Origin: an uncultured Pseudomonadota bacterium
GTDB lineage: Bacteria > Pseudomonadota > Alphaproteobacteria > JACZXZ01
NCBI GenBank assembly: GCA_963842155.1
Contig: CAWJFP010000039.1
Coordinates: 18,321-82,320 of the forward strand
Direction of reading: 5' to 3'
Length of the DNA: 64,000 nt
A program made the translations under genes and the position numbers. Shown piece after piece: positions 5,927-15,372 of the stretch. Below the pieces are notes generated by a model. That model had not been told where the DNA came from. It saw only the letters and a program-made list of their open reading frames with translations, and did no database searches. Each line of letters opens with the position of its first letter. Positions within the stretch are counted from its first letter, which is position 1.

Positions 5927-6766
5927 TCAGAGTCGGCCGACCATGATCGGGCAGCGGTCACCCATCTCGTATCTCGGCAAATGGCGGTCGAGGAGCGAAA
6001 CCCCTTCGGCTTCCAGCATGGCAATCAACTCGTCGAGGGTGGGAAAGTTTAGTCGTACCTGTTTGCCTCGAAAGAGCTCGATGGTCCGGACCACTTCCGG
6101 CCGCCAGCCGCATCTCTCCGATAGCCCTTCGACTTCGGACTCGAGCCGGCGCCAGAATCGCCAGACCTCATCCAGCGTTACGCCCTCTTCCGGGCGGGAT
6201 TGCAGTGCCATGGCCAGACGAAACTTGAAGGCGTGAAAGCTCCCGGCTGCGCCGGTTTGCGCGGTCTGGAAAAGCGCCGGGATGCTTTCCGGAATGGCCG
6301 GACGGGCAAAGCTGCGCAAGATCAGGAGGGCTCGCGGGCGCGCCAGCACGGCCAGTCTTGCCAGCAATCGCCGCATCTCTCCCGGATACCTCAAGGCGTT
6401 GATGCTGCCGTCGCCGATCACCATGTCGTACGGCCGCGCGGGCCGGGGGAGCGCGAACCAATCGTCGCACAGCGCATGGCGTAAACCGGGTACGTCGCCG
6501 GGCCACACGCTTGTGACCATTTCCTGCGCTTTATCGACACCGGTGACGACCGTCCGCGCGGGCCATGACATGGTCGCTATCTCGGGCGTAACACCGAGTA
6601 TGAGCGCCGTGCTTGCGGCATCCGGGGGGGTGTCCGAATAGGCATTGATGAAGCGCAGGAAAGCGGTCAAGTCCTCGCCGCAAGGGCGCAGAGGCGACGA
6701 GTAGAGGTCCCAGCTCCGAGCCGTAGAATTCCAGTGTGCGCGTCCGTACTCGTCGGCCAGTGACAT
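5927..6766 (-). CDS. Class I SAM-methyltransferase-like protein, paralogue A
   Basis: 279 aa with a Rossmann-type MTase-like core (ALILGVTPEIA..VTGVDKAQEMV..MVIGDGSINAL..RALLILRSF) but no canonical GxGxG. Same length as, and clearly paralogous to, 6986..7825. Confidence 0.7.
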   Translation of the reverse strand: MSLADEYGRAHWNSTARSWDLYSSPLRPCGEDLTAFLRFINAYSDTPPDAASTALILGVTPEIATMSWPARTVVTGVDKAQEMVTSVWPGDVPGLRHALCDDWFALPRPARPYDMVIGDGSINALRYPGEMRRLLARLAVLARPRALLILRSFARPAIPESIPALFQTAQTGAAGSFHAFKFRLAMALQSRPEEGVTLDEVWRFWRRLESEVEGLSERCGWRPEVVRTIELFRGKQVRLNFPTLDELIAMLEAEGVSLLDRHLPRYEMGDRCPIMVGRL

Positions 6767-6769
6767 CGA

Positions 6770-6920
6770 TTATCGCCCTTGTTCCAGCCGTTCGAGCGCC
6801 GCTCGGTGAGCGCGAGGATCGATCTCGGTTTCCGGATCGGGATAAAAGTCGGAGTCGAATTCGGCTGCTTGCCGCTCGGGCTCGCTTGGATCTCGTCCAC
6901 TTCGACGATGCGCAGCAGCG
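6770..6920 (-). pseudogene. Dead duplicate of the 3' end of the adenylating-ligase gene
   Basis: Encodes ...DEIQASPSGKQ then, after a 1-nt deletion near 6862, EFDSDFYPDPETEIDPRAHRAALERLEQGR. This copies the last ~45 codons of 7829..9289, and there is no upstream gene body. Confidence 0.85.
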
Positions 6921-6925
6921 ATAAA

Positions 6926-7980
6926 GCGGATGTTATGGACGCCCCCTCGGAGCGTCAAGGCGCGCCGCCACGTCGAACCTCGAGTTCAGAGCCGGCCGAC
7001 CATGACGGGGCAGCGGTCGCCCATCTCGTATTTCGGCGAGTAGCGGTCGAGGAGCGAAACCCCTTCGGCTTCCAGCGTGGCAATCAACTCATCGAGGGTG
7101 GGAAAGGTCAGTCGCATTTGGTTGCCGCGAAGGAGTTCGATGGTCCGGACCACATCCGGCGGCCAGCCGCATCGCTCCGACACGCCTTCGACTTCGGCCT
7201 CAAGCCGGCGCCAGAGCTGCCACAGCTCGTCCATACCGACACCCTCGTCCGGGCGCGGCTGCAGTGCCATGGCCAGACGGAACTTGAAGGCGTGAAAGCT
7301 CCCGGCCGACGCGGATTGCGCGGCCTGGAAAAGAGCTGCGATGCTTTCCGGGATGGCTGGACGCGCAAAGCTGCGCAAGATCAGGAGAGCTCCAGGGCGC
7401 GCCAGCTTGCGCAGTTTTGCCAGCAATCGCCGCATCTCTCCCGGATACCTCATCGTGTTGATGCTGCCGTCGCCGATCACCACATCGTACGGCCGCCCAG
7501 GCCGGGGGAGCGCGAACCAATCGTCGCACAGCGCATGGCGTAAACCGGGTACGTCGCCGGGCCACACGCTCTTGACCATTTCCTGCGCTTTATCGACACC
7601 GGTGACGACCGTCCGCGCGGGCCATGACATGGTCGCTATCTCGGGCGTTACTCCTAATATTAGCGCCGTGCTTGCGGCATCCGGGGGGATGTCCGAATAG
7701 GCATTGATGAAGCGCAGGAAAGTGGTTACGTCCTCGCCGCTAGGGCGCACTGGCGAGGAGAAGAGGTGCCAGCTCCGAGCTCTGGAATTCCAGTGTGTGC
7801 GTCCGTACTCGTCGCCATGCGGCATCGATTATCGCCCCTGTTCCAGCCGTTCGAGCGCCGCTCGGTAAGCGCGAGGATCGATCTCGGCTTCCGGATCGGG
7901 ATAAAAATCGGAATCGAATTCCAGCTGCTTGCCGCTCGGACTCGCTTGGATCTCGTCCACTTCGACGATGCGCAGCGGCG
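6926..7980. repeat. Tandem duplication unit B (about 1.06 kb)
   Basis: Partner of 5867..6920. Homology stops at 7980, where the intact ligase gene continues. Confidence 0.9.
6986..7825 (-). CDS. Class I SAM-methyltransferase-like protein, paralogue B
   Basis: 279 aa, same motifs as paralogue A. Its ATG lies 3 nt after the ligase stop (CGATAATCGATG). Confidence 0.7.
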   Translation of the reverse strand: MPHGDEYGRTHWNSRARSWHLFSSPVRPSGEDVTTFLRFINAYSDIPPDAASTALILGVTPEIATMSWPARTVVTGVDKAQEMVKSVWPGDVPGLRHALCDDWFALPRPGRPYDVVIGDGSINTMRYPGEMRRLLAKLRKLARPGALLILRSFARPAIPESIAALFQAAQSASAGSFHAFKFRLAMALQPRPDEGVGMDELWQLWRRLEAEVEGVSERCGWPPDVVRTIELLRGNQMRLTFPTLDELIATLEAEGVSLLDRYSPKYEMGDRCPVMVGRL

Positions 7981-9289
7981 TCTTATCGCTGCCGGCGATC
8001 GCCGTCCAGACCCGCATCAGCCGTTGGGAGAACTCCGGCGACATGCCTCCCGCGGAACGCACGCGCAATTCGAAACTATGATCGCGAAACTGATGGAGTT
8101 GATATTGGCGCAGGGGCCTCAATAGCTCGATAGGCATCGCCTCTATTGCATCGAGCAGGGAATAGTGACGCTCGCGGGTGCCCTCCGGCAGGTAGCCGAA
8201 GCGGCGAAACCGTCCGGCGATTTCGCCGATCACCGGGAGGTTACGCCCGCAGGGGCAGGGCAAGATCGCCGCGCGCGCGACGTCGCCGGTATCGTAACGG
8301 ATGAGAGGCATCGCCAGGTTCTGCAGCGCCGTAACCAGCACGCGCCCGAGCTGGCCGGCCGTGCAGGCCGCGCCTCGCGCGTCGACCACCTCGACGATGC
8401 AATGCTCGACATTGATGTGATAGAGCCCCGCCTCGCAGCGTACCGCCACGGCGCCGATTTCATTCAAACCGTAGGCATCGTGGAGGGGCGAGCGATAGAT
8501 GCGCTCGACCTGGCGACGGGTCGATGGAGCCGTGCTTCCCGCACTGCTGAATAAGGCGGAAATCGAATCGGCCGGATTGGCACAATCATTGGCATAGGCC
8601 AGTTCCTCGAGGACATTCGAATAGGTCGCGAGATAGTTGGGTTGGATTTCCTGCAACCAGCGAAGTTGTTGCCCCATCGAATTCCACACGTTAAATCGAT
8701 AACCCGGTCCGGTTTCGAAATAATTCCCCAAATAATCCCACCTTTCGGTTCGCCATACCTCCCCACTTTGCAGCAATGCGCCGTTCTTGCGCGGAAAGTG
8801 GCTCGGTATTTTGATGGAGCATGACACGCCTCTGGGGTCGACGCGCGCCCAGCGCCGCCGACGGTGGGCAAGGATGCCGAACATCGCATCGCTTTGCCGT
8901 GTCGCTAAGACCTTTACCGGACGGCCGGTGGTGCCGGAGGACTGAGTGACAGCGAATATCTCTGTGCCTTGCGGCAGCGCCCGTGCACGCATTTCGTCGA
9001 ACTGATCGATAACCTCCTGCTTCGAGAGGATCGGCAGCCGCGGCAAATCCTGCTGCCCTTTGATATCCGCCGCCTGCAAGCCGAGGGCTTCGAAACGCGC
9101 GCAATAAAATGGAACATGCTTGCCGGCGATGGCGAGTATTTGCGCCAGACGGCGATCTTGTTGGGCGAGGAGAGTCTCGGGCGCGGCAAACTCGTTTGCG
9201 ATCAACGCAGTGAACCAACGACCATCGGCATTTCCGGGCCGCAATCGCCAACGGGACAGCTCGGCTTCCTCTTGGGCACGCGTGCTCAT
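7829..9289 (-). CDS. PaaK / coenzyme F390 synthetase-like adenylate-forming ligase (ANL superfamily)
   Basis: 486 aa with ANL core motifs in order: TQSSGTTGRPVKV, DAYGLNEIG, IRYDTGDVA, IGEIAGRFRR, ASPSGKQ. GC3 is visibly lower than in flanking core genes. Confidence 0.8.
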   Translation of the reverse strand: MSTRAQEEAELSRWRLRPGNADGRWFTALIANEFAAPETLLAQQDRRLAQILAIAGKHVPFYCARFEALGLQAADIKGQQDLPRLPILSKQEVIDQFDEMRARALPQGTEIFAVTQSSGTTGRPVKVLATRQSDAMFGILAHRRRRWARVDPRGVSCSIKIPSHFPRKNGALLQSGEVWRTERWDYLGNYFETGPGYRFNVWNSMGQQLRWLQEIQPNYLATYSNVLEELAYANDCANPADSISALFSSAGSTAPSTRRQVERIYRSPLHDAYGLNEIGAVAVRCEAGLYHINVEHCIVEVVDARGAACTAGQLGRVLVTALQNLAMPLIRYDTGDVARAAILPCPCGRNLPVIGEIAGRFRRFGYLPEGTRERHYSLLDAIEAMPIELLRPLRQYQLHQFRDHSFELRVRSAGGMSPEFSQRLMRVWTAIAGSDKTPLRIVEVDEIQASPSGKQLEFDSDFYPDPEAEIDPRAYRAALERLEQGR

Positions 9290-9301
9290 GGCGCGACGGA
9301 G

Positions 9302-9451
9302 TTATTGACCCAGACTATCGACCGCTGTCCATGCGATCGACCAACCAGCCTGTCCTGCACGGAATTCCTGGCCAAATTCTTCATCGATATCATCGTTGTC
9401 GCATTGTACCACAAGCGCGCGGGGAACGATCCGCCGGCCGTCAATAGTCAA
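9302..9451 (-). CDS. Candidate 49-aa acidic peptide (MTIDGRRIVPRALVVQCDNDDIDEEFGQEFRAGQAGWSIAWTAVDSLGQ)
   Basis: Open frame filling the gap between the DUF2877 gene and the ligase. TTG 9451 overlaps the upstream TGA as TTGA, with an alternative GTG at 9412. TAA falls 12 nt before the ligase ATG. No clear SD, so this rests on coding-context evidence only. Confidence 0.35.
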   Translation of the reverse strand: MTIDGRRIVPRALVVQCDNDDIDEEFGQEFRAGQAGWSIAWTAVDSLGQ

Positions 9452-10272
9452 TCCGAATGCAATCCGACGCGCAAGCCGGCGAGGAGATCCCAGCCCGACG
9501 AATGGCCGAGGACGGCGAGCGAGCGCGCGGCAAGGAGGGCGCCCTCGCGCTCGCCCGAGGCCAGCGCCAGGCAAAGCGCATGAGCCGGCGCGAAGCTCAT
9601 GCCGTGCGTGGCGTCGACGAGGATTGCCGCGCTGACGCGGCCGGCGCGTAGCCGCGCCTCTTGGCGCAGCAGTTCGCCCCAGGCCTCGACGCGCGTGGCG
9701 CGCGCCGGCAAGGCTACGGCTTGGAGCCGCAGACCGAGATGGAACCCGGCGAGGAAATCGTCGCCCGAGGGCGTCAGGCCGGGGCCGAGGCCGATCAAGC
9801 GCCGCACTGCCTCGCGTCCGGCGACGAGGTTGTCCGCCGCCGCGCTCTCGCGCAACAAGGCGATGCGCAAGGCGGCATCCTCGAGCGGAAATTCCGCGCG
9901 CGCGCCCGCGAGCCAGACGCCCAAGCCGCGCGGCGTCGCTTCTGCCAAGAGCGACGCGGCGAGCCTCTCTATGCGCTCGCCGAGTGCAAGCGGCCCGCCC
10001 GCGATTTCCCTCGGCCAAGCGGGACGCCAAGGCGCCAGACCGTGCAGTGCGAAATGCACCTCCCGCCAATCGGCCGGCAACGCGCCTCCGAGCAGGACCG
10101 AGCGCGGATGGAGCAACGCGTCGCCGCCTCCCGCCCAGATGATCTCGGGGCCGGCCTCGAGATAAGCGGACTCGCGTAAGGCGGCGACGAGGCGCGCCAT
10201 GCCGCGCGACGCGGCCAAGGCCTCGAAGGCGAGGCAGCCGATATGGACGGGGCGGAGCGGAGGCGGCGCCAT
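9448..10272 (-). CDS. DUF2877 / AllH(YlbF)-like protein
   Basis: ORF 9448..10398 trimmed to ATG 10272 (MAPPPLRPVHIG). It carries the hallmark GLGPGLTPSGDDFLAG motif of the DUF2877 family. No fdrA/ylbE-type partners are nearby. Confidence 0.7.
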   Translation of the reverse strand: MAPPPLRPVHIGCLAFEALAASRGMARLVAALRESAYLEAGPEIIWAGGGDALLHPRSVLLGGALPADWREVHFALHGLAPWRPAWPREIAGGPLALGERIERLAASLLAEATPRGLGVWLAGARAEFPLEDAALRIALLRESAAADNLVAGREAVRRLIGLGPGLTPSGDDFLAGFHLGLRLQAVALPARATRVEAWGELLRQEARLRAGRVSAAILVDATHGMSFAPAHALCLALASGEREGALLAARSLAVLGHSSGWDLLAGLRVGLHSD

Positions 10273-10676
10273 GCCCGTAAACCTAGGGGAGCCGCCCGCG
10301 CCGATGCAAATTAGGCGGGAATATCCCCTGCCGGCGCGACGTTCGGCCTCGCAGCTGCGGCTCCGTCGCCAGGCGCCGTTCGACGCCGGTCGCCACAACT
10401 CCTAGGCGAGGTACAAAGAGAACGACTCTCGACCACAATATTTCGTGGGAGCGGTTCAAGAGGACCCCTACATGAAGTCGAAAAATTGACGCCGCAACTC
10501 CCCGCGAGAAAGGATTTCGCGCGGCGGAGATTGACCAGGCTCAACAGTGAACGGACTCGACCGCAGCTCTACAAGAGTTACGCAGATATTTCACAGAGCG
10601 TTCATGGAATGTAGTCTTCGCAATAACATTCACTATTCCGATGTTTCGGTAGACAAGCAGTGCAGCTTTTTATAGC

Positions 10677-12203
10677 ATGGTTAACTCTGGCAATAAATTT
10701 GCCGTGGGGGAGCCCCGCAGAGGGCCAAATTGGGCAATGGCTGAAATCGCGCACTACGAGGACCTTGCCGGCGCGGAAGGCAAGCTGATCTATTACCGGC
10801 CGCAACGCTTCACGGCGCGAGAGATTTACAAGCAGATCGTCCCCAGCCTGCGCGTCAACAAGATGCCGTTCGTGCTGCATGATCTGAGCATCAGCGGCAT
10901 GGCGGCCTGCACCGAGGTCAATCAGAGCCCCGATGCGGAGATCGGCGAGGAGGTGCCCGTCCTCCTGCAGCTGGGCGACACGGATCTCTATCGCGGCAAG
11001 GGCCGCGTCACGCGCGTCGAGCCCTTCTATGCGCGCACCAAGATCGCGCTCAGCCTGACCAGCGGCTATATCGACATCGCGAAGACCATCGCCGACCATC
11101 AATCGGCCCTCTTCAAGGTCTCGCTCGAGAAGAGCCTCGCCTTGCGCACCGACCTCTTGAGCGCCGAGTACCGCACTCTCGTGGCCGACCTGCTGCGCTT
11201 CTTCCGCCAATATCGCCTGCCGCTCGAGCAGCTCGAGAGCAACCTGCCGAAGGGCGGCGCGGGCCAGGAGGAGCAGATGATGCGCGTGCTCGCGATCTGC
11301 GAGGATCGCGCCTTGCCCGAATGGCGCCGCCTCTGGTTCCGCGCCAATGAGCTGGTGGCCCCCATCATGAAGGACGAAGAGACGCTCAAGGCGACGAAGA
11401 CATTGACCACGCTCGTCATCACGCCGGAGTTCGTCGAGGGGCCCGTCATCCGGCGCAGCTACGAGAAGCCGCTGGGCTATCCGGGCGACTACGAGGTGAT
11501 GAACATCATCTACCGCTGGCGCTACGAGGGGAAGACGATGTTCGGCCAGCTGCTGCATCGGCTCGGCCTCGACGTCGCAGAATGCATCGCCATGCGGATG
11601 GTGATGATGCAGCAGACGATCGCCCAGGTGCTGGCGGAATCGCCGGGGGGACAGGCGGTGCATGTCACCAACCTCGCCTGCGGCCCCGCGCAAGAGGTGG
11701 TGAACTGCCTCAAGATCCCGGCCTTACCGGCGCCGGTGCGCTTTACCCTCGTCGATCAGGACGCCGACGCGCTGTCCTACGCCTATCAGCAGACCTATCC
11801 CGAGGTGGTGCGCCATCAGGGCCGCGCCACGATCCAATGCCTGCATGTGTCATTCAGCCAGCTCATGCGCGCGGGCAGGCTGTTCCGCCGCATGCCCGAC
11901 CAGCATCTCATCTATACCGTCGGGCTGCTCGACTACCTCTCGACCGTGCGCGCCCGCGCGCTCATCGCCGATCTTTACGGGCAGCTTTCGGACGGCGGCA
12001 TGCTGGTCGTCGGCAATATGCGCGACACGCCGACCGGCATTCTCTGGCCGCTCGAGTTCATCTGCGACTGGAGCCTGATCTACCGCACGGAAGAGGAGAT
12101 GCACGAGCTGGCGGCCGGGCTCGACGCCGCGAGCGTCGAGGTGCGGCCGGACCCGACGGGTCGCGTCTATATGCTCTTCATCCGCAAGCCCAAGCGGGCC
12201 TGA
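10677..12203 (+). CDS. PilZ domain - SAM-dependent methyltransferase fusion (PhcB-like architecture)
   Basis: 508 aa. The N-terminal PilZ signature is QRFTAR (RxxxR) plus DLSISG (DxSxxG). The C-terminal class I MTase has VTNLACGPAQE, FTLVDQDADAL and DGGMLVVGNM. An alternative start is ATG 10737. Confidence 0.8.
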   Translation: MVNSGNKFAVGEPRRGPNWAMAEIAHYEDLAGAEGKLIYYRPQRFTAREIYKQIVPSLRVNKMPFVLHDLSISGMAACTEVNQSPDAEIGEEVPVLLQLGDTDLYRGKGRVTRVEPFYARTKIALSLTSGYIDIAKTIADHQSALFKVSLEKSLALRTDLLSAEYRTLVADLLRFFRQYRLPLEQLESNLPKGGAGQEEQMMRVLAICEDRALPEWRRLWFRANELVAPIMKDEETLKATKTLTTLVITPEFVEGPVIRRSYEKPLGYPGDYEVMNIIYRWRYEGKTMFGQLLHRLGLDVAECIAMRMVMMQQTIAQVLAESPGGQAVHVTNLACGPAQEVVNCLKIPALPAPVRFTLVDQDADALSYAYQQTYPEVVRHQGRATIQCLHVSFSQLMRAGRLFRRMPDQHLIYTVGLLDYLSTVRARALIADLYGQLSDGGMLVVGNMRDTPTGILWPLEFICDWSLIYRTEEEMHELAAGLDAASVEVRPDPTGRVYMLFIRKPKRA

Positions 12204-12373
12204 GGCGCGCCCACCGCCCCCCGCTCTCCGCTGCGCCTCCCTCTGCGCGCGGAAAACCGCGTCGCATTTCGGCGCCGGCTCGTCGAGACGTCGGCGCCCA
12301 GAGCGTTTTCACATCGAGTGGAAACGCGAAAAGCCCGAGGCACCGCGTATGCGGTGCCTCCACTTGTCTCGCG

Positions 12374-12398
12374 AAAAAAATGCGGGCCGGTGGCCCGC
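12374..12398 (-). terminator. Rho-independent terminator downstream of the histidine kinase
   Basis: On the minus strand, GCGGGCCACCGGCCCGC is followed by TTTTTTT. A second hairpin (gaggcaccgc-gtat-gcggtgcctc, 12337..12360) is followed on the minus strand by GGGCTTTTCG. Confidence 0.7.
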
Positions 12399-12459
12399 AG
12401 GCGCTTGAGCGGCCGGAAACAAGATATGCTAGAGCGATTCCGCGTGAGCGGATATCGCT

Positions 12460-13899
12460 CTAGGCGCTGCGCGCGATGGCGTGAACCGGCGCCGCATCGG
12501 CGGGCCGCTGCAGCCTGATCACGCGCTCGGCCGGCAGGCACACCGTCATCCGCGTACCGATACCGAGCTCGCTCTCCAGCAGCAGCGTGCCGCCATGGAG
12601 CTCGACGATGCGCTTCACCAGCGGCAGGCCCAGCCCGGTGCCGCCATGCTTGCGGTTATGGGCGCTCTCGACCTGGACGAAGGGCTCCAGGATCTTCTCC
12701 AGATCGTCATGCGCGATGCCGATGCCCGTATCCTCGATGCGGACGCGGCAGCCCTCGGCGTCGTTCTGGATCGAGATGACGACCGCGCCGCCGGTGAGGG
12801 TGAACTTGATCGCGTTCGAGACCAGGTTGATGAGCACCTGGCGCAGGAGGCGGAGATCGGCACGCAGGATGGGTTGCTCCTTCGGCAGGCTGAAGGCGAG
12901 CCGCACGCCCTGCGTCGCCGCGGTGTTGCGGAACATTCGGATGCAGCCGTCGACCAGATCGCAGAGGTCGACCTCCTCCTCGGAAAGGATGAGCTTGTTG
13001 GCCTCGGCCTTGGCCAGATCGAGGATGTCGTTGATCACCGAGAGGAGGTGCGTGCCGCTGCTGTGGATGTCGTCGACATAGCCCATGTAGCGCTCCGAGC
13101 CGATGGGCCCGAAGATCTGCAGCTTCATCACCTCGGTGAAGCCGATGACGGCGTTCAAGGGCGTGCGCAGCTCGTGGCTCATGGAAGCGAGGAACTCGCT
13201 TTTCGCGCGGTTCGCCGCCTGTGCCTCCTGTCCCAGCCGCTCGGAGCGGACCTTTTCGAGGATGAGGAGATGCGTGTTGATGAAGTTGCGCCGCCGGTAG
13301 AGCTCGTGCGTGTAACTCGAGAATATGCCCACGGCCAGGGACGCGCTGAAGAAGAAGTCGTTGTTGATGAGGATCGCTTTCGGGATATGCGCGACGAGTA
13401 TGGCGCCCAGCTGGTACAGCAGGAAGAGCGAGAGCGAGAGCAGCGCGGCGTAGAAATGATCGAGGCGGATGATGCTGGAGCAATAGATCACGACGAGGAT
13501 GAGGCCCGCGTAATAGAGATAATTGGCGGGCGCGGGCATGATCGTCGTCATGGCGAGAATGCCGAAGCCCGATGCGAAGCTGCCGACGGCGAGGAAGAAC
13601 TGCGAATAGCGGATGAAGACGCGCGTGTAGGTCGCGACGAGCACGGCAACCAGGATGGGGCAGACGATGCCGTAGCGGATCAGCCAGATGCCCGGCAGGT
13701 CGTCCGGCACCATGTAGGTGTCGAGAATGCCGAAGAGCGCATAAAGGACTGTGCCCAGAACAATGGTCAGCCGAATGAGCCGCATCGAACGCTGCAGCTC
13801 TTCGGTCACGAAATGCTTTTCGATCTCGCGATCGTGGAACTTGAGCGTGATCGGACTATACTGGACCGAACGGCGCGTCTCTTCGCTCTCGGCCGACAC
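12460..13899 (-). CDS. Membrane-bound sensor histidine kinase, no cognate response regulator nearby
   Basis: HisKA H-box SHELRTPLNAVIGF, N/G boxes (LINLVSNAIKFT, DTGIGI, GGTGLGL), and about six TM segments N-terminally. The ORF runs to 14046, but its first ~50 codons are Arg-rich junk. GTG 13899 is preceded by GGGGAAG; TTG 13938 is also possible. Confidence 0.85.
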   Translation of the reverse strand: MSAESEETRRSVQYSPITLKFHDREIEKHFVTEELQRSMRLIRLTIVLGTVLYALFGILDTYMVPDDLPGIWLIRYGIVCPILVAVLVATYTRVFIRYSQFFLAVGSFASGFGILAMTTIMPAPANYLYYAGLILVVIYCSSIIRLDHFYAALLSLSLFLLYQLGAILVAHIPKAILINNDFFFSASLAVGIFSSYTHELYRRRNFINTHLLILEKVRSERLGQEAQAANRAKSEFLASMSHELRTPLNAVIGFTEVMKLQIFGPIGSERYMGYVDDIHSSGTHLLSVINDILDLAKAEANKLILSEEEVDLCDLVDGCIRMFRNTAATQGVRLAFSLPKEQPILRADLRLLRQVLINLVSNAIKFTLTGGAVVISIQNDAEGCRVRIEDTGIGIAHDDLEKILEPFVQVESAHNRKHGGTGLGLPLVKRIVELHGGTLLLESELGIGTRMTVCLPAERVIRLQRPADAAPVHAIARSA

Positions 13900-14095
13900 G
13901 TCTTCCCCGCTATCTTTCTCAACCTTGCCAGGCTCCAAGAAAAAATAGCGCCCTAATCTTAATGAAAGGTGACCATGGCGCCGCCGTGCGCGGCCCGGCT
14001 GGGCTCGCGGGAAAGCCCGTTTCGCCGTGCGCCGCGCCCGCCACAAGGTTAATTTTTCCCGAAGGCGCTCATGCCGAGCGGGGAGGTCCCCGATT

Positions 14096-14902
14096 TCAGC
14101 CCAGGCGGGCGAGAAAGGCCGCGATCGCCGCGTTCACGGCCGCCGGTTGCTCGACGGTCGAGCTATGGCCGGCGCCGGGGATGCGCAGGAGCTCGGCACC
14201 CTTGATCGCGGCGGCGATGCGCTCGGCCTGGGCCGGCACGGTGGCGACGTCCTCCTCGCCCACCAGGACGAGTGTCGGGGTCGCGATCTTGCCGAGCTCG
14301 TCATGGATGGCGGGGCGCTCGAGCACGCCGTTGAGCGCGCGCCAGATCGAGCGTCGATCGGTCGCCAGAATCTGCGCGCGCCAGGCCGCGCGGTCCGCGG
14401 CGCGCGCCGGATCGGCGAGCACGCTGCGGCCGAAGAGGATCGGCATCACCGAGGGCAGCACGAGCCTCGTGCCGAGCCAGCGCGAGACAAAGGCCATGAG
14501 CCTGTATTTCGGCTTCCGCCCGGGAGGCTCCGCGTCGGCCGTGGTCTCGAGCAGGATGAGCGAGCGCAGGAGCTCGGGCCGGCGCGCGGCCAGCCGCATG
14601 CCGACGAAGCCGCCCATGCTGAGGCCGCAGAAATGCACCCGTCCGAGGCGCAAGGCGGCGATCAGCTGGGCGGCATCGTCGGTCAGCGTGTCCATGTCGA
14701 TCGAGCGCAGCGACGACTCGCCGCTCTGTCCCTGGCCGCGATGATCGTAGGCGACGCAGCGATAGCGGCCCCGCAGCGCCGCCACTTGCGGCGCGAACAG
14801 CGTGGTGTTCCAGAGCAGCCCATGGCTGAACAGGATGGGCTCGCCCTCGCCTCCGCTGTCCTCGTAATGAAGCTCGGCGCCGTTGATGCGGATCGTCGTC
14901 AT
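14096..14902 (-). CDS. Alpha/beta-fold hydrolase
   Basis: ATG 14902 (MTTIRINGAELHYEDSG...). Motifs are HG oxyanion FSHGLL and nucleophile elbow GLSMGG, plus a C-terminal His (AGHSS). Its start is 5 nt downstream of the FabZ-like gene stop. Confidence 0.85.
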   Translation of the reverse strand: MTTIRINGAELHYEDSGGEGEPILFSHGLLWNTTLFAPQVAALRGRYRCVAYDHRGQGQSGESSLRSIDMDTLTDDAAQLIAALRLGRVHFCGLSMGGFVGMRLAARRPELLRSLILLETTADAEPPGRKPKYRLMAFVSRWLGTRLVLPSVMPILFGRSVLADPARAADRAAWRAQILATDRRSIWRALNGVLERPAIHDELGKIATPTLVLVGEEDVATVPAQAERIAAAIKGAELLRIPGAGHSSTVEQPAAVNAAIAAFLARLG

Positions 14903-14907
14903 GGGCG

Positions 14908-15372
14908 TCAGGGAAGGGCGCTGCGCTGATCGAGGATCATGGCCGTGAGATAGGCTTCCGCCACGAGCGCGCCGGCGACCCACGCCTTGCCATGCACCTT
15001 GGAGGTGGGACCGAAGGCGCGCTCCTTGACGAGATGGAGCAGCATGACGTCGCCCGGGCCGACCGGCCTATGGACGCGGAATTTCTGCAGCCCCATGAAA
15101 TAGATGTACTTGCCCGACCTGTCGCCGCCGAGGGTGTGGATCGCCGCCACCGCGGCCGTCTGGCCCATCGCCTCGATGATGAGCGTGCCGGGGACGAACA
15201 GCCGGCCGGGCGGCAGGCCGCGGAAGAAGGGCTCGTTGACCGTCACGTTCTTGACGCCGACGGCACTCTTGTCCGGGACGACGTCCTTGACGTGATCGAT
15301 CATCAGGAAGGGATAGCGGTGCGGCAGCATCGCCTTGATCTGGTCGAGATTGAACTCGACGGTCGGCCCCAT
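14908..15372 (-). CDS. FabZ-like hot-dog protein lacking the catalytic His
   Basis: LPHRYPFLMID...NVTVNEPFFRGLPPGRLFVPGTLIIEAMGQ matches the FabZ pattern, except that GHFP is GLPP. Start is ATG 15372; the ORF extends to 15414. Confidence 0.75.
   Translation of the reverse strand: MGPTVEFNLDQIKAMLPHRYPFLMIDHVKDVVPDKSAVGVKNVTVNEPFFRGLPPGRLFVPGTLIIEAMGQTAAVAAIHTLGGDRSGKYIYFMGLQKFRVHRPVGPGDVMLLHLVKERAFGPTSKVHGKAWVAGALVAEAYLTAMILDQRSALP

Follow-up and report, generated by a model that had tools for sequence, protein, structure and literature searches.

Do the genes at positions 10677–15372 of the DNA analysed here, a 64,000-nucleotide (nt) stretch from an uncultured alphaproteobacterium that is called the window below, encode a cell-to-cell signalling system of the Phc type, and which of them belong to it? 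Studies of Phc signalling have dealt with Ralstonia and its near relatives, in which the system governs virulence and symbiosis, and PhcB is the enzyme that makes its quorum signal, the methyl ester of a 3-hydroxy fatty acid (methyl 3-hydroxymyristate or methyl 3-hydroxypalmitate). The initial annotation of the block had joined four neighbouring genes into one pathway, in which a FabZ-like protein captures a 3-hydroxyacyl-acyl carrier protein, an α/β-hydrolase releases the acid, a fusion of a PilZ domain to a methyltransferase (gene 1) esterifies it under the control of cyclic di-GMP (c-di-GMP), and a membrane histidine kinase (gene 2) senses the product. Our analysis supports only genes 1 and 2 as a unit, and we think it rather probable, from the comparisons described below, that these two form a Phc-like module for making and sensing a signal, into which c-di-GMP may feed.

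Homology of the two proteins to PhcB and PhcS

Relatives of gene 1 were collected in a scan of species-representative genomes, which gave 503 loci, of which the best 80 were analysed. Kinase adjacency was counted over 83 loci, the PilZ motif table covers 81 orthologues, and a check with Pfam covers 25 family members. The family comprises 5,469 cluster-50 representatives when the threshold is E ≤ 1e-3, and 1,130 when it is E ≤ 1e-30. For the Phc references, 400 genomes of the phylum were searched, resulting in four Burkholderiales loci with the complete published phcBSRQ-type architecture, each encoding a methyltransferase and a membrane kinase together with two receiver proteins, one of them a fusion to a kinase-like domain. 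An exact-sequence cluster look-up identified one of these loci as that of Ralstonia mannitolilytica, with kinase and regulator clusters named PhcS, PhcR, and PhcQ, and the same kind of look-up assigned a second to a Massilia sp.

The longest open reading frame (ORF) of gene 1 starts at 10677 and encodes 508 amino acids (aa). The real start is probably the ATG at 10737, because the homologues are mostly 476–488 aa long and align from that methionine (M21 of the 508-aa frame), so that gene 1 would occupy 10737..12203 on the plus strand and encode a PilZ-helical-methyltransferase protein of 488 aa belonging to the PhcB family. The full-length AlphaFold2 (AF2) model has a mean predicted local distance difference test (pLDDT) value of 87.6 and shows a disordered arm (residues 1–21), a six-strand barrel (37–107), a helix (114–134), a helical domain (143–301), and a Rossmann domain (308–483). 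Apart from its start, the annotated fusion of a PilZ domain to a class I S-adenosylmethionine (SAM) methyltransferase is borne out, as the ORF is real and both folds are found. The central domain (11163..11639, plus strand) is all-helical in the model, aligns to PhcB, and carries the signature KPLGYPGD (KPLGYAGD in PhcB) as the invariant residues K244–D251. The class I (Rossmann) SAM methyltransferase domain (11658..12185, plus strand), recognised in the model and by Foldseek, contains GCGPA as motif I and ends with the signature DW..IYR (EW..IYR in PhcB). Foldseek matched this methyltransferase part to small-molecule O- and C-methyltransferases, with 3ocj as the top match. Among solved structures this entry, an uncharacterised protein of Bordetella parapertussis, comes closest to the helical and methyltransferase domains taken together, with a template modelling (TM) score of 0.60 on the target, and may be the nearest structural template for enzymes of the PhcB type.

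Comparison of gene 1 with the PhcB orthologue of R. mannitolilytica by BLASTP resulted in 28 % identity over 251 aa with an E value of 8e-27, and alignment of the gene 1 family with the four PhcB orthologues by HHalign covered 377 columns and residues 76–476 (99.9 %, E 9.5e-35). The relationship is reciprocal: gene 1 is the only match of PhcB in the genome of the window, and PhcB is the only match of gene 1 in the Ralstonia genome. The two families also have the signatures KPLGY[PA]GD and [DE]W..IYR in common, both of which lie outside the generic SAM motifs, are invariant in 25 of 25 alphaproteobacterial members, and are present in all four PhcB orthologues. By these comparisons, which the initial annotation had proposed as a check of its reading, the methyltransferase of gene 1 is a PhcB homologue (K19620 family) across both the helical and the methyltransferase domains. 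The product name that the annotation had given for this architecture, EF 3-hydroxypalmitic acid methyl ester biosynthesis protein, is exactly the label that JGI gives to homologues of gene 1 and is also the KEGG name of PhcB, which is encoded by the phcBSRQ loci of Ralstonia, Cupriavidus, and Massilia.

Gene 2 lies on the minus strand at 12460..13899 and is convergent to gene 1. Its longest ORF extends to 14046; the likely start is the GTG at 13899, which sits behind an AT-rich stretch, and the orthologue in an 83 %-identical relative is called at 480 aa. The protein is an orphan membrane histidine kinase with about six hydrophobic segments, as had been annotated, and consists of a six-transmembrane sensor domain (13231..13863) and a kinase core (12526..13206) in which Pfam recognises HisKA (13000–13206) and HATPase_c (12526–12858). 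The intergenic region between the two convergent genes (12204..12459) contains two GC-rich hairpins beyond the stop of the kinase gene, at 12337–12360 and 12381–12399, the second of which is followed on the minus strand by a T7 tail, in agreement with the double terminator seen earlier at this site.

The sensor domains match no Pfam family even at E ≤ 10, and their relationship to PhcS was established by other comparisons. BLASTP aligns the kinase with PhcS collinearly over its whole length, and HHalign of the sensor domains alone gave 170 collinear columns (95.9 %, E 5e-9) compared with 0.2 % for a reversed-sequence control. A hidden Markov model (HMM) of the alphaproteobacterial sensor matches all four PhcS orthologues with E values of 4e-11 to 1e-5, and the reverse search matches too. 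Judged by these profiles, the kinase and PhcS have homologous membrane sensor domains, and the second comparison that had been suggested for the locus likewise supports the Phc relationship. The window thus has in common with the phcBSRQ loci homologous helical and methyltransferase domains with both signatures, a homologous six-transmembrane sensor domain, and adjacent synthase and sensor genes. The window kinase differs from PhcS in its core, which is nearer to hybrid-type and DivJ-type HisKA kinases; in NCBIfam it matches hybrid-type and DivJ/PdhS-type kinases best, in every case with a score that falls far short of the cut-off.

Conservation of the methyltransferase-kinase pair

All of the 80 best loci are alphaproteobacterial and include Parvibaculum, Tepidicaulis, Stellaceae, Aliidongia, Oceanibacterium, and others, so the arrangement, which had been described as unreported in an alphaproteobacterium, is not unusual in this class. 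A full-length kinase orthologue is convergent and directly adjacent to the methyltransferase in 73 of the 83 loci, the two genes being −7 to 263 nt apart, and these adjacent kinases are 42–55 % identical, the transmembrane region included. When every neighbouring gene of the window was used as a tblastn query against the other 80 alphaproteobacterial loci, the kinase alone was co-conserved, and the hydrolase, FabZ-like, AllH-like, ligase, and DUF2141 genes were found in 0 of 80. Of the four-gene neighbourhood whose conservation had been put forward for checking, the methyltransferase and the kinase therefore stand as a conserved pair, and the hydrolase and the FabZ-like gene do not.

The two genes are also lost from view together. 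The methyltransferase is absent from 10 of the 10 genomes in a comparison set of the same family, and the kinase sensor domain is likewise absent. Pairwise identities among the methyltransferases and among the kinases, compared as matrices, correlate with r = 0.97. Since the two genes are co-adjacent where they occur and co-absent from the same-family genomes, the comparison indicates that they are acquired or lost jointly, as a unit. Three close metagenome relatives were compared for the order of their loci. In the 83 % relative the order is ileS, methyltransferase, kinase, and FabZ-like gene, with no hydrolase. In a 79 %-identical relative, the methyltransferase and the kinase are separated by an inserted DUF899 gene (L109:4931-5638). 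The GC content of the window is about 63 % at 6–14 kb compared with 68–72 % in the flanks. This dip, together with the absence of the pair from the ten same-family genomes and the position of ileS beside the methyltransferase in the 83 % relative, suggests that window positions 6000–14000 are a variable and probably acquired region. No word of at least 9 nt that could represent a shared operator is common to the two promoter regions.

Outside the immediate relatives, the methyltransferase is found in further settings. A 774-aa transporter of the MMPL family lies directly upstream of, and co-directional with, the PilZ-methyltransferase in 46–49 Parvibaculaceae loci (e.g. L020:5540-7864), and in one locus an MMPL gene is positioned 2 kb beyond the kinase (L006:12309-14729); the window has none. 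Such a neighbour is consistent with a lipid-like, exported product, as far as gene context can indicate. Another alphaproteobacterial family, with genomes of 6–7 Mb, encodes a 344-aa PhcB-like methyltransferase without a PilZ domain, divergent to a 696-aa membrane protein in which a PhcS-like sensor domain is fused to GGDEF and EAL (L123:3987-7311 in genome G155; also L091, L093, L097, L098, L100, L101, and L102), and the sensor HMM matched the neighbouring ORF in 7 of 10 loci of this short-methyltransferase type. By homology, the pairing of a synthase with a sensor domain thus recurs in three architectures, namely the convergent PilZ-methyltransferase/kinase pair, phcBSRQ, and the methyltransferase beside a sensor-GGDEF-EAL protein, two of which are tied to c-di-GMP.

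The PilZ domain and c-di-GMP

The N-terminal domain of gene 1 (10737..11138, plus strand) comprises a disordered Arg-rich arm with K16, R21, R24, and R28, a six-strand β-barrel with D49-L-S51-I-S-G54, and a C-terminal helix. Searches of the PDB by sequence returned nothing useful from either the full gene 1 protein or the N-terminal profile, and there the PilZ fold was seen by fold comparison only. Residues 1–135 modelled separately in AF2 reached a pLDDT of 86, and the best PDB matches of this model in Foldseek are all PilZ domains, those of MotI, YcgR, PlzD, BcsA, PA0012, MapZ, and Alg44, with E values of 2e-4 to 2e-2 and TM scores of about 0.5. The Pfam PilZ model (PF07238) matches 13 of the 25 family members at E ≤ 0.01; its score for the window protein is 21.1–21.2 bits, which is below the cut-off of 22.5.

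The two motifs of the domain differ in how well they are kept. In the [D/N]xSxxG motif, D/N49, S51, and G54 are conserved in 81 of 81 orthologues, and the DLSISG of the window, already picked out in the initial annotation, is this motif. In the arm, R21 and R24 are invariant over the same 81 orthologues, and the canonical RRxxxR lies at positions 16–21, where R16-[RK]17-x-x-x-R21 is present in 70 of 81. The window protein reads K-L-I-Y-Y-R at these positions, with the canonical RR replaced by K16-L17, and it and its two nearest relatives have G-K-L-I-Y-Y-R where most members have G-R-[RK]-x-[FY]-Y-R. The RxxxR that had been annotated (QRFTAR, R24..R28) is not the conserved motif, as R28 is Arg in only 20 of the 81 orthologues. 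The PilZ arm of the window protein is the least canonical within the family.

The domain resembles the PilZ receptors YcgR, MotI/DgrA, PlzD, the PilZ domain of BcsA, MapZ, and Alg44, its top Foldseek matches, in its predicted β-barrel and C-terminal helix, its conserved [D/N]xSxxG, and its Arg-rich disordered N-terminal arm. It differs from them in being fused to a methyltransferase of the PhcB type, and in the window protein by the lack of the canonical RR and a Pfam score just under threshold. Another related system is MapZ-CheR1 of Pseudomonas aeruginosa, where the c-di-GMP-loaded PilZ protein controls a methyltransferase whose target is a chemoreceptor (10.1101/2020.02.11.943704). Both cases couple a PilZ domain to a SAM methyltransferase, with c-di-GMP control of methylation as the logic; in Pseudomonas the two are separate proteins, whereas gene 1 would act in cis as a fusion whose catalytic domain is PhcB-like and not CheR-like. 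PhcB itself has an N-terminal domain that corresponds in size and position to the PilZ domain of gene 1 and might be a degenerate PilZ. Only its second half aligns, and then within the full-length HHalign comparison; HHalign of the two N-termini alone gave a non-significant 4 %. The N-terminal domain of the four PhcB orthologues is without the c-di-GMP motifs of PilZ, in contrast to that of gene 1.

Since the PilZ fold and the [D/N]xSxxG motif are retained, the domain could plausibly serve as a c-di-GMP input. Because the RR of RRxxxR is replaced by KL, binding of c-di-GMP appears less certain in the window protein than in most members of the family. There is indeed a substantial chance, somewhat short of an even one, that the PilZ domain of the window protein does not bind c-di-GMP and instead has a regulatory or interaction role like that presumed for the motif-less N-terminal domain of PhcB. 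The G-K-L-I-Y-Y-R arm of the window protein and its two closest relatives and the sub-threshold Pfam score would fit such a role, as would the PhcB domain of Ralstonia, which matters for function although it has no c-di-GMP motif: the adaptive change R22C in it alters quorum responsiveness (PMC6989110). On the other side, D49, S51, G54, R21, and R24 are all retained, R24xxxR28 offers an alternative RxxxR, and the Arg-rich arm is predicted to be disordered, like that of apo PilZ domains. The nucleotide would also be at hand, since the genome of the window encodes five GGDEF proteins and is, on this evidence, one that makes c-di-GMP.

Function of the pair and its wider meaning

By analogy with PhcB, gene 1, as a cytoplasmic enzyme, would methyl-esterify a lipid-like carboxylate to give a diffusible product, and by analogy with PhcS, the kinase would sense this product in the membrane. 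Binding of c-di-GMP to the PilZ domain may gate the synthase, which is plausible for the family as a whole and less so for the window protein. PhcB and PhcS, the only characterised relatives of the two proteins, act as signal synthase and signal sensor, respectively (PMC11960443, PMC7694676), and in PhcS autophosphorylation at H230 follows the sensing of the signal (PMC11960443). The window kinase would in turn pass the signal to an unlinked response regulator. In a distant relative (genome G056, L107:5394-8824), a PilZ-methyltransferase of 31 % identity faces, in convergent orientation, an operon that encodes a 151-aa single-domain response regulator together with a PhcS-like kinase. It is the only locus with a regulator in an operon with the kinase, and is a possible clue to the type of the partner regulator.

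A number of observations weigh against a signal synthase and sensor of the Phc type. The identity of gene 1 to PhcB is only 21–28 %, so that its substrate could differ. The homology of the sensor rests on profiles, as the PhcS sensor used as a single sequence found no match in the genome of the window. The window pair is convergent, in contrast to phcBS, which form a co-directional operon. The downstream part of the Phc circuit has no counterpart so far: there is no receiver domain or response regulator within the window, as had been noted at the outset, no conserved regulator gene cluster across the 80 loci, and no orthologue of PhcR or PhcQ, a PhcQ query giving only generic receiver similarity in the genome (best E 1.5e-4). 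Five Parvibaculum loci (L042, L059, L061, L079, and L080) have the MMPL gene and the PilZ-methyltransferase, but the 8 kb to each side contain no histidine kinase. For the c-di-GMP input, the KL in the arm and the Pfam score of the PilZ domain, both described above, count in the same direction.

Some of these points could equally be accommodated if the two genes were coupled without any cell-to-cell signalling, the methyltransferase modifying or detoxifying an intracellular or membrane lipid-like metabolite and the kinase monitoring the membrane or the substrate. The low identity to PhcB, the failure to find PhcR, PhcQ, or PhcA circuitry, and the loci that have kept the methyltransferase without the kinase all suit this alternative, and the MMPL lipid transporter beside the methyltransferase in Parvibaculaceae fits lipid handling as well as export of a signal. 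We nevertheless regard it as unlikely, given that the only characterised relatives serve as signal synthase and sensor and that the pairing of synthase and sensor domain is maintained in three architectures, as a ligand-receptor relationship predicts.

The four-gene pathway fares much worse. The α/β-hydrolase (14096..14902, minus strand; Pfam Abhydrolase_1/6) and the FabZ-like protein (14908..15372, minus strand) are present as annotated, with 5 nt between them if the hydrolase starts at the ATG at 14902. The FabZ-like protein passes the NCBIfam FabZ model with 136.9 bits against a cut-off of 113 and keeps the Glu of the IEAMGQ motif; it differs from FabZ in that the catalytic His is replaced (FRGLPP where FabZ has FxGHFP), confirming the missing dehydratase His, and in being a second copy that is conserved independently of the methyltransferase/kinase pair. 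Another FabZ homologue, 50 % identical, is encoded elsewhere in the genome of the window, and the housekeeping-type FabZ homologues of relatives carry GHFP where checked. In favour of a pathway of capture and release, all four genes sit side by side in the window, the FabZ-like gene adjoins the kinase in the 83 % relative as well, and acyl thioesters and esters are possible substrates for hot-dog and α/β folds. Yet neither gene accompanies the pair in the other loci, as the tblastn comparison above showed, the hydrolase is missing from the locus of that same relative, and between the hydrolase and the start of the kinase there is a 196-nt gap with an AT-rich stretch. The His-less FabZ paralogue, with FRGLP or FRNMS and the Glu kept, is found in five same-family genomes (L112–L116) from which both the methyltransferase and the kinase sensor are missing. 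As it is present in relatives lacking the pair, the comparison makes the FabZ paralogue a resident gene and the hydrolase a local addition, neither of them conservedly linked to the pair. The lack of co-conservation essentially rules out the four-gene block as one module, and we consider the proposed pathway very improbable.

Least credible of all is a protein methyltransferase of CheR/MapZ-type logic acting on the kinase or another protein, for which CheR SAM-domain matches in 4 of 25 members, the JGI label chemotaxis methylase on one homologue, and the precedent of MapZ and CheR1, in which a PilZ protein controls a methyltransferase (10.1101/2020.02.11.943704), could be cited, but the CheR matches are weak (best E 0.0014) and limited to the generic SAM domain, the kinase has no methylation region like that of methyl-accepting chemotaxis proteins, the structural neighbours are small-molecule methyltransferases, and the homology to PhcB is far stronger.

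For the window, the two-gene Phc-like reading means that the module has two genes, not four. The literature library searched contained no paper characterising the PilZ-methyltransferase family or tying phcB to Alphaproteobacteria or to PilZ. Taken further, and with the tentativeness due to a claim that we find rather doubtful, the pair could represent a widespread alphaproteobacterial cell-to-cell module of the Phc type, in which the synthesis of a lipid methyl-ester autoinducer would be switched allosterically by c-di-GMP via the fused PilZ domain, with the reverse wiring in the proteins where the sensor is fused to GGDEF-EAL. The spread claimed for such a module is hundreds of species, with more than 1,000 cluster-50 representatives at E ≤ 1e-30, and its carriers include Parvibaculum, Tepidicaulis, Oceanibacterium, Aliidongia, and Stellaceae. 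Several of these are harmless environmental isolates in culture, and the idea is therefore open to ordinary genetics and gas chromatography-mass spectrometry. Fatty-acid methyl-ester signalling would extend further, given a conserved PhcB/PhcS-like pair in many free-living Alphaproteobacteria, and with the fused PilZ domain the control of autoinducer synthesis by an intracellular second messenger could be tested directly. If true, quorum signal and second messenger would form a two-way circuit in these bacteria.

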